Assembly (NCBI GenBank): GCA_951406725.2
Contig: OX597840.1
Location: 1,550,001 to 1,614,000 of the forward strand
Origin: Octopus vulgaris
Taxonomy: Eukaryota
Reading direction: 5' to 3'
Length of the DNA stretch: 64,000 bases
This document shows positions 25,310-27,039 of this stretch, in pieces. Every line of letters starts with the position of its first letter. Positions within the stretch are counted from its first letter, which is position 1. Made by a program: the position numbers and the translations under genes. The notes beneath the pieces are model-generated. The model saw only the letters and a list, made by a program, of their open reading frames with translations. It searched no databases and was not told the origin of the DNA.

Positions 25310-26456
25310 TATATATATATATATATATATATATATATATATATATAGTTGGAATTTACAGAAACACAAAATACGAAGACAGGTGTATATACACACGTAC
25401 ATCCATATATACCTCACACCTATTTCAGTTTCTCTCAAATAGATCCTTTACGAACCTTCAGTCGGGAAGAGGCCATACTAAAAGGCACTTTTCCAAGCTG
25501 CCACCTTATAGAACTGAATTCGGAACCATGTGTTTCGGAAGCAAGCTTCTTACTACACTGCCACCCGAATAATATACATATATATACATATGTATGTATG
25601 GAAGTATTTATTTATATATATATACTTATATATATATATATATATATATATATATATATATGTGTGTGTGTGTGTGTATTTATGAATATGTATATATATA
25701 TATATATATATATATATATATATATATGTGTGTGTGTGTGTGTGTGTGTGTGTGTGTGTGTGTGTGTGTGTATTTATAAATATGTATGTATATATATATA
25801 TATATATATATATATATATATATATATTATTGACGTCAAAAGAAGCTCTGCAGTCGCCAGAAGCCTTGAATTAATACATTTTTCGGATCCAGAGCCGCAC
25901 ACTTAAGGCTATATCTTGACTGTACTGATTTGAAAAACGCTTATAGCTAGAGGAAGTCGAAGGAACTTCAAATATTTCAATCCAAACATGGTTTTTCAAC
26001 TGAATATTTACATGCACTTCTGTAATGCCTTTTTCGGGATCATGTTTTATATTTTATTTCCCCCAAAATTTATATATTCATCTATCTATCTATCTATCTA
26101 TCTATCTATCTATCTATCTATCTATCTATCTATCTATCTATCTATCTATCTATCTATATATATATATATATATATATATATATATATATATATATATATA
26201 TATATATATATATATATATATATATAAACAATTGAGGATAAAATCTTTAAAAGAAATTATCAGTAGTCAGCGTGAAAAACCTCGTAAGAGAAAAAATCCG
26301 TAAATTCTTCCTCTTTGAAAATATTCATTTATATTATATTGAGGGTACCACTATTCGTAGATACCAACACGCTAAGAGGGACCAATGCGGTCAAAACTAC
26401 TAAAAATAAACAAAATTTTACCGAATGCAAAACTTCAAAACACATCATTTTAAAAA

Positions 26457-26533
26457 GAATTCAGTTACATATCACATGTGATTTCGCATTTAATGCAGAA
26501 TATGCATTTCATGTTCGTCAGTGCAACAAACTC
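26457..26533 (-). ncRNA. Type I hammerhead ribozyme (family 4), left arm of palindrome
   Basis: Mirror copy of 26711-26787. Confidence 0.75.
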
Positions 26534-26710
26534 AAGAAATATAAGAAAAAACATAACATTACAAACTCGATAGCCAACCGTAGAATTCGTCGTTGCTTGT
26601 ACGTAGCTTTGTCTTTCATAGATATGTAAGGATAAACATTCGTACAAGCTACGACGAATTCTACGGTTGGCTATCGAGTTTGTAATGTTATGTTTTTTTT
26701 TATATTTCTT

Positions 26711-26787
26711 GAGTTCGTTGCACTGACGAACATGAAATGCATATTCTGCATTAAATGCGAAATCACATGTGATATGTAACTGAATTC
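26711..26787 (+). ncRNA. Type I hammerhead ribozyme (family 4), right arm of palindrome
   Basis: Helix I GAGTTC-GTTGCA / TGTAAC-T-GAATTC; core CTGACGA 26723-26729; helix II ACAT..AATGCA TATTC TGCATT..ATGC; GAAA 26759-26762; palindromic helix III ATCACATGTGAT; predicted cleavage after AUA 26774; 10.1-11.1 is an A-C mismatch. Confidence 0.8.
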
Positions 26788-27039
26788 TTTTTTAAAATGA
26801 TGTGTTTTGAAGTTTTGTTTATTTTTAGTAGTTTTGACCGCATTGGTCCCTCTTAGCGTGTTGGTATCTACGAATAGTAGTACCCTCAATATAACATAAA
26901 TGAATATTTTCAAAGAGGAAGAATTTACGGATATTTTCTCTTACGAGGTTTTTCACGCTGACTACTGATAATTTCTTTTAAAGATTTTATCCTCAATTGT
27001 TAAAAAATAATATATATATATATATATATATATTTGTTT

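Follow-up and report, generated by a model that had tools for sequence, protein, structure and literature searches.

The 775-bp palindrome studied here, located in a 64-kb stretch of the Octopus vulgaris genome (the window), is probably a single head-to-head insertion of a retrozyme into a (TA)n microsatellite, whose RNA is likely circular and copied in trans by a Penelope-like (PLE) enzyme. Copies of this retrozyme stop at two fixed outer ends about 100 nt apart. Head-to-head insertions with two fixed ends carry one of each in 56 of 57 cases, and the window copy is the only long/long pair among the 57. This kind of element is already known: what is new is a rule, backed by counts, for the likely formation of Penelope-type inversions. 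The part worth following is this end rule at the level of the family, and not the locus in the window.

The layout of the locus is given in Table 1. When the reverse complement of 26227-26603 (minus strand) is aligned to 26641-27001 (plus strand) the palindrome arms, about 375 bp each, differ by six substitutions, one 1-nt indel and one 17-nt indel. The latter falls at a repeated 5-mer and is a private deletion of the right arm, near 26817. An inverted-repeat search detects the palindrome as repeats of 200 and 169 nt with 95-97% identity. A first-pass annotation had described near-identical arms of about 370 bp, an outward-pointing hammerhead motif on each strand and flanking (TA)n, all of which is borne out in the sequence. 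It had also described a 37-nt spacer. The unpaired centre is indeed 37 nt long (26604-26640), but 27 of these bases (26614-26640) are element sequence of the right arm and only about 10 nt are filler. (TA)n flanks the palindrome on both sides, nested in a (TCTA)n tract; this tract has the same orientation before and after the element, and the flanks are therefore not mirror images. Further, both arms have the subfamily alleles, on top of which later changes have occurred in each arm separately. The raw distance between them equals the family median, partly because filler bases are counted too. The two arms probably arose in one insertion event, and not by later duplication.

Table 1. Features of the palindromic insertion in window coordinates. 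The right arm crosses the unit start because the start of the unit numbering is arbitrary.
Feature	Position	Strand	Basis or detail
(TA)n target microsatellite, left side, within (TCTA)n tract	26157..26226		sequence
Left arm, retrozyme unit ~16-390, terminating at the long ('tail') end	26227..26603	-	alignment
Left-arm ~100-nt 'tail' between short and long fixed ends	26227..26330	-	family comparison
Type I hammerhead motif, left arm	26458..26533	-	C3 at 26521, A10.1·C11.1 at 26514/26486
Left-arm predicted cut	between 26470 and 26469	-	core-and-helix scan, folding
Junction filler, ~10 nt, resembling the adjoining left-arm start	26604..26613		origin inferred: likely templated slip
Right arm, unit ~481-494 then 1-390, terminating at the long end	26614..27001	+	alignment
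Type I hammerhead motif, right arm	26711..26786	+	C3 at 26723, A10.1·C11.1 at 26730/26758
Right-arm predicted cut	between 26774 and 26775	+	core-and-helix scan, folding
Right-arm ~100-nt 'tail' between short and long fixed ends	26900..27001	+	family comparison
A-rich filler and (TA)n, right side, then the remaining (TCTA)n tract	27002..27033		sequence

The motif in each arm is of type I, with C3-A9, G12-A14, A15.1-U16.1, H17 and an extended open helix I; helix III is palindromic, and the helix II region spans 29 nt and is closed by A10.1·C11.1. Both motifs have AUA as cleavage-site triplet (a UA cleavage site), which occurs in natural hammerheads according to the available part of PMC1636495. 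A core-and-helix scan over both strands of the window gives four matches: the two arms, one at 61802 (minus) and a doubtful one at 3367 (plus). All three helices are present in the predicted minimum free energy structure of each 91-nt arm piece, and the stability of these pieces is unremarkable (z -1.0 and -0.3). In Rfam, no hammerhead is found at the gathering score, nor among the eight matches at E<=10; the matches are hairpin look-alikes below the gathering score.

Conservation of the motif was studied in 16 hand-picked copies: four young ones, and 12 old ones with a recognisable motif from 30 old loci. Here 95% of the helix cells are paired, a fraction reached by none of 500 shuffles, while slid controls give 23-48%. 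Two-sided changes are seen in 5 of 23 pairs; since they come from two subfamily groups, they represent few independent events. The first-pass annotation had staked its reading on an arm consensus that holds a hammerhead core, and the core is kept in 54 young motif copies or parts of copies, N7 being the only core position that varies between subfamilies. In its core and in the conservation of its helices the motif is a type I hammerhead, with a predicted cut site in each arm.

One position departs from the canonical form. G-C at 10.1-11.1 is described as highly conserved in hammerheads in the accessible text of PMC4209133, whereas both arms have A·C. In the 2.8-Gb assembly (227 contigs), a 23-letter core pattern has exact matches at 395 places if position 10.1 is A and at 40 if it is G, and reversed-pattern controls give none. 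A locus-specific A·C is thereby rejected. The mismatch had been taken as a change that predates a duplication of the arm, a dating that falls away: A·C is carried by the whole young family and is therefore uninformative about the window locus. Most of the 40 G10.1 matches are copies of an intermediate subfamily, whose identity to the young unit is 84-90% in the segment that contains the motif. An older subfamily (L136-L165; 1,569 first-look candidates), about 75% identical to the young unit, also has G10.1-C11.1, with the same layout and likewise with short/long bipolar ends. Judged by these sequences, the family-wide A·C is derived from G-C and arose in a source lineage that kept amplifying.

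The window holds other repeats of its own. A second, unrelated hammerhead repeat lies at 61250-62060, with minus-strand tandem units of about 360 nt and a head-to-head inverted arm on its right; its motif at 61802 (minus) is of type I and has the canonical G-C closing pair. Another copy of this repeat is found near 6.0-6.4 kb (6046-6364). The match at 3367 (plus) resembles a hammerhead core, has a weak helix II and is possibly due to chance. There is also a 311-codon open frame at 31310-32245 (plus), which we take to resemble the C-terminal zinc-finger region of LINE ORF2.

Upstream of the arm, family copies run into more of a 494-nt unit, into an inverted arm or into the flank, which identifies the arm as part of a non-coding tandem unit. 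One locus (L011) is a natural dimer with a 494-nt period and without a long reading frame in six-frame translation. An open reading frame for reverse transcriptase (RT) or GIY-YIG endonuclease is absent from the 494-nt unit, and no upstream coding sequence is shared among 79 insertions with 1.5-kb flanks. The arms are thus pieces of an ORF-less tandem unit, and among the sequences compared there is no protein-coding element whose inverted pLTRs, as first proposed, they could be.

The arm as query gives 1,698 first-look candidates, 40 of which were scored. Among the first 100 core matches listed, which were counted by eye and fall into 83 loci, there are 6 tandem and 11 opposite-strand core pairs; all of the latter face outward, and no run of more than two adjacent cores is seen in this set. 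About 13% of these loci (11/83) thus have a hammerhead on each strand, which scaled to the 395 matches gives roughly 40 similar palindromes in the genome. The window palindrome is ordinary for its family. When cut at the predicted site, the unit has a somewhat better fold than its shuffled versions, of which 2 of 100 do as well (z -2.4). Sampled unit words are present at 38-62% in public runs under five organism labels. All 30 unit bins are covered in two of four contig sets guessed to be RNA, and 13 and 16 in the others, although such sets give no strand, ends, circle or level for the unit. In its testable genomic features, all read from sequence, the 494-nt unit is a non-LTR retrozyme. In one insertion (L002/L003, G000:C12:40688771-40692157) one of three hammerhead copies differs from the other two by seven substitutions clustered in about 35 nt.

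The 90 loci that were fetched collapse to 79 insertions. Of these, 32 are one-armed and 47 are bipolar, which we read as head-to-head with variable centres. A palindrome with the same spacer throughout the genome, as the annotation had suggested looking for, is not what is found: centres vary among insertions, and a fixed family spacer is rejected. At the outer ends of bipolar insertions the unit stops at about 288 (short) or about 390 (long) and is followed by (TA)n. The 47 comprise 41 short/long pairs, one long/long pair (the window copy), no short/short pair and five with one irregular end. The first query was biased toward long ends; two queries without this bias give 23 short/long insertions and no like pair. 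In a position-ordered census of 24 loci on one contig (C1), 15 are bipolar, 13 short/long and 2 irregular, and 9 of the 13 were new to the sample, as were 19 of the loci. The G10.1 subfamily (19 loci) has six short/long insertions, two irregular ones and no like pair. Remnants of an opposite arm in the 32 one-armed copies add six unlike pairs and one long/long pair (L033). That unlike fixed ends are nearly always paired suggests that both broken DNA ends were likely primed on one RNA.

Head-to-head inversion, a one-sided tail, a microsatellite target and 5' truncation, all features of PLE-type insertions, are found in the family, and the Penelope-type architecture that had been suspected behind the palindrome was in this sense judged correctly. 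The window copy has a tail on both sides, unlike the one-sided pattern of the family.

The two arms of an insertion also resemble each other more than expected. Between opposite arms, 175 of 12,578 compared sites are different (1.4%), where random pairs give 2.5%, and at subfamily-diagnostic positions the arms disagree at 0.19 per 100 columns, against 1.08. Of the distinct variants private to one insertion, eight are common to its opposite arms, in 6 insertions, and nine to segments on the same strand, in 6 insertions of which one is rearranged; private here means private within the 79 sampled insertions, and comparisons within an insertion are not independent. The cleavage site is crossed by 105 of 130 arms, and twice by 14; the longest arm is 1,084 nt, so that arms reach 2.2 units. 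Fixed A-to-I editing shows no excess in the copies (sense A>G 32, T>C 36, p=0.39). Multi-unit arms that share rare variants would most simply be accounted for by a unit-length circle as template.

However, the template could instead be an uncut linear transcript of tandem genomic copies, with an A·C hammerhead that is weak or dead and circles that play no part. Three observations speak for this: hammerhead mutants are without effect on the insertion of an anole PLE in vitro, as given in the available text of PMC11167929; A·C replaces the conserved closing pair; and no pile-up of 5' ends is found at the cleavage site, with only 2 of 126 within about 5 nt. We nevertheless consider a linear template unlikely. 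It does not readily explain the variants, otherwise unseen, that same-strand segments share in six insertions, nor arms of more than two units when no longer array is present among the first 100 core matches listed. The core, in which only N7 varies between subfamilies in the young copies compared, also counts against it.

How the arms are joined can be studied in the 39 two-armed short/long insertions. In 26 of them the arms are nested and in 13 they are not. In unit coordinates, the distance between the 5' ends of an insertion's arms is smaller than after shuffling (median 86 against 127 nt, p=0.008), and the junctions have short overlaps or filler. Arm 5' ends are also somewhat enriched at the start sites (12 of 126 in unit 278-296 and 7 of 126 in 384-402), from either AT-rich microhomology or one polymerase meeting the primer of the other. 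A single priming event might be enough to form both arms: the first cDNA would prime itself by folding back, and the endonuclease would resolve the long hairpin at two fixed sites. Such self-priming has been proposed from head-to-head palindromes (PMC3846280, available part). Close 5' ends, nested pairs, overlaps or filler at most junctions and variants shared between arms are all expected from it, and the long/long window copy with its 37-nt centre fits well. Yet plain fold-back, which copies the second arm from the first cDNA and so leaves it nested, is excluded for the 13 non-nested pairs; these would need a hairpin that is longer than the insertion on both arms and cut at a different site on each. 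Plain fold-back also predicts many long/long copies, where 1 of 57 is observed. We regard single priming as improbable, with a somewhat lower chance than a linear template.

Our preferred reading, a trans-copied retrozyme inserted head to head, would proceed as follows. The unit RNA is likely cut to unit length by its hammerhead and then likely circularised, and a Penelope-like reverse transcriptase-endonuclease likely copies it in trans. This enzyme would break both strands within (TA)n, and both DNA ends would prime on one RNA, one at the short and the other at the long start site. Synthesis of cDNA may continue around the circle and beyond the cleavage site. Short inverted matches would then serve to connect both cDNAs head to head: probably the end of one cDNA folds back and is extended into a sense copy, which pairs with the other cDNA. 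The non-nested pairs call either for two priming events or for an intermediate that was longer and lost sequence from both arms, and priming at both ends together with fold-back joining would fit these pairs as well as the close 5' ends. This joining model combines extension of both strands from two start sites (PMC11167929) with self-priming (PMC3846280), each as described in the accessible part of the paper. For the long/long copy in the window, the best explanation would be that one cDNA was copied by fold-back or that the long site served both ends.

In a more specific form, which we put forward tentatively and at slightly less than an even chance, a dimeric enzyme holds one hammerhead-made circle at its two start sites, primes both ends of the break, rolls round the circle and joins the cDNAs. 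If this is true, inverted pLTRs, the one-sided tail and the integration of retrozymes would all have one explanation, and the family would preserve in the genome the step so far missing from Penelope-type retrotransposition, amplifying despite a non-canonical A10.1·C11.1. Several points count against the preferred reading: the departure from the conserved G-C pair, the 26 nested arm pairs that also fit fold-back, and a commonest intact PLE that is rarely bipolar, with no partner sharing the unit sequence found among the stretches described below. In addition, 8 of 9 Xenopus retrozyme dimers failed to cleave in vitro, according to the available text of bioRxiv 10.64898/2026.07.22.740005.

For the window locus itself, a palindrome could also come from misassembly, from a chimeric read or from a single insertion that was duplicated later. 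Its long/long pairing is atypical of the family. Contigs of four runs cover neither 26580-26609, though 27 of 29 bins are covered, nor the joint of the 17-nt deletion (possibly other individuals, with filtered records). Against this, the arms are unequal, with six substitutions and two indels between them, and the flanks are not mirrored, both of which argue against an artefact. Bipolar structure is shared by 47 of the 79 family insertions, and one contig, from another run, contains the unit in both orientations, joined to each other. We therefore find such an origin very improbable. A MITE-like DNA transposon, with hammerhead motifs that lie by chance in its terminal inverted repeats, has a negligible chance and, as the annotation had held, is rejected. 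The long terminal inverted repeats and TA-rich flanks would suit it, but the copies show neither fixed terminal repeats nor a uniform length: there is no constant centre or arm length, one end usually reaches 100 nt further along the unit than the other, 32 of 79 copies have a single arm with a truncated 5' end, and units stand in tandem.

Candidates for an enzyme acting in trans on the retrozyme RNA are present in the genome. There are 148 scored GIY-YIG matches, many in 781-codon frames that encode RT and GIY-YIG and have an upstream ORF. Intact RT-GIY-YIG elements that target (TA)n are among them, with a tail of about 38 nt. In the commonest intact PLE, 2 of 38 sampled loci are bipolar with two canonical ends, both short/long. 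A Neptune-type PLE (L121-L129, L166-L203; e.g. L124; G000:C6:133343500-133350000) has an ORF1 of about 465 aa overlapping the 781-codon RT-GIY-YIG frame. It is very young: its period is 4.7 kb, and 40 scored 3' ends are 100% identical. The label Neptune-type is given from the CX4CxxC motif before GIY-YIG, read against the available part of PMC8557442 and not from a tree. This PLE resembles the 494-nt family in its (TA)n target and in having two 3' ends, with its tail again at about 38 nt. In contrast to the 494-nt unit it is rarely bipolar, shares no sequence with the unit and has no hammerhead detectable by the core-and-helix scan. The 494-nt unit is not present as own repeat in any of 45 PLE-bearing stretches, most of them from one family, and no shared unit sequence is found in 15 longer stretches or in 38 stretches of the commonest PLE family. 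A unit match at one locus (L098) was considered as a link to a partner and rejected, as it is a separate older retrozyme copy. In the window, a decayed PLE endonuclease fragment is seen at 29369-29530 (minus), 39% identical to the 781-aa protein.

Read-through of the window copy was expected to give a long hairpin RNA in which the hammerhead competes with the duplex. The long hairpin stands, but the duplex is predicted to win rather than to compete, its energy being -590 kcal/mol and that of the hammerhead fold about -10. Transcription from either side makes the antisense arm first, and together with such a duplex this makes cleavage unlikely, according to the folding model, unless transcription starts in the centre. 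With its two hammerheads predicted to be locked in the duplex, the window copy likely gives rise to double-stranded RNA and to no further insertions. In general, the long genomic hairpins of the family are candidate sources of double-stranded RNA. The family also offers a natural A10.1·C11.1 hammerhead lineage beside its G-C ancestor. Further, tests of both-end priming and of circles could use it as a small substrate, as the RNA is 494 nt long, its two start sites are mapped, its target is defined and its ends follow a near-obligate rule.

We found no description of the 494-nt family or of a counted end-pairing rule in the literature searched, which did not extend to most subscription papers or Repbase. 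How tandem and inverted PLE structures form is named as unresolved in the available part of PMC8557442, and the mobilisation mechanism of retrozymes is still to be shown according to that of bioRxiv 10.64898/2026.07.22.740005. As far as the accessible text of PMC7229834 and of this preprint goes, metazoan non-LTR retrozymes share with the octopus family a tandem unit that is non-coding, low in GC and has a single type I hammerhead, a dispersed copy number in the hundreds and co-occurrence with autonomous PLEs. The unit is larger here, 494 nt against 170-400 nt in PMC7229834, and within the 51-972 range of the preprint. The octopus family differs in that head-to-head copies form the majority of those sampled, in the 100-nt asymmetry of its ends and in the A·C of its young members; the word 'inverted' is absent from the main text of PMC7229834 and, in the available preprint, occurs only in a reference title.

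The one-sided tail is already known in PLEs. In their available parts, PMC3846280 and PMC8557442 describe inverted pLTRs and a 'tail' much like what is seen here: a head-to-head inverted and 5'-truncated copy, an extension at one end and microsatellite targets. In contrast to these endonuclease-bearing PLEs, the octopus family is without an ORF, its tail is about 100 nt where theirs is 30-40, both of its arms can exceed one unit, and the pairing of its ends has been counted (56 of 57). The closest experimental parallel is the anole Poseidon PLE studied in vitro (PMC11167929, as far as available), where two internal RT start sites define the tail, the target is AT-rich, and both strands are cut and extended. 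In that system hammerhead cleavage is not needed and the start site is equal between strands, whereas the two DNA ends in octopus almost always use different sites.
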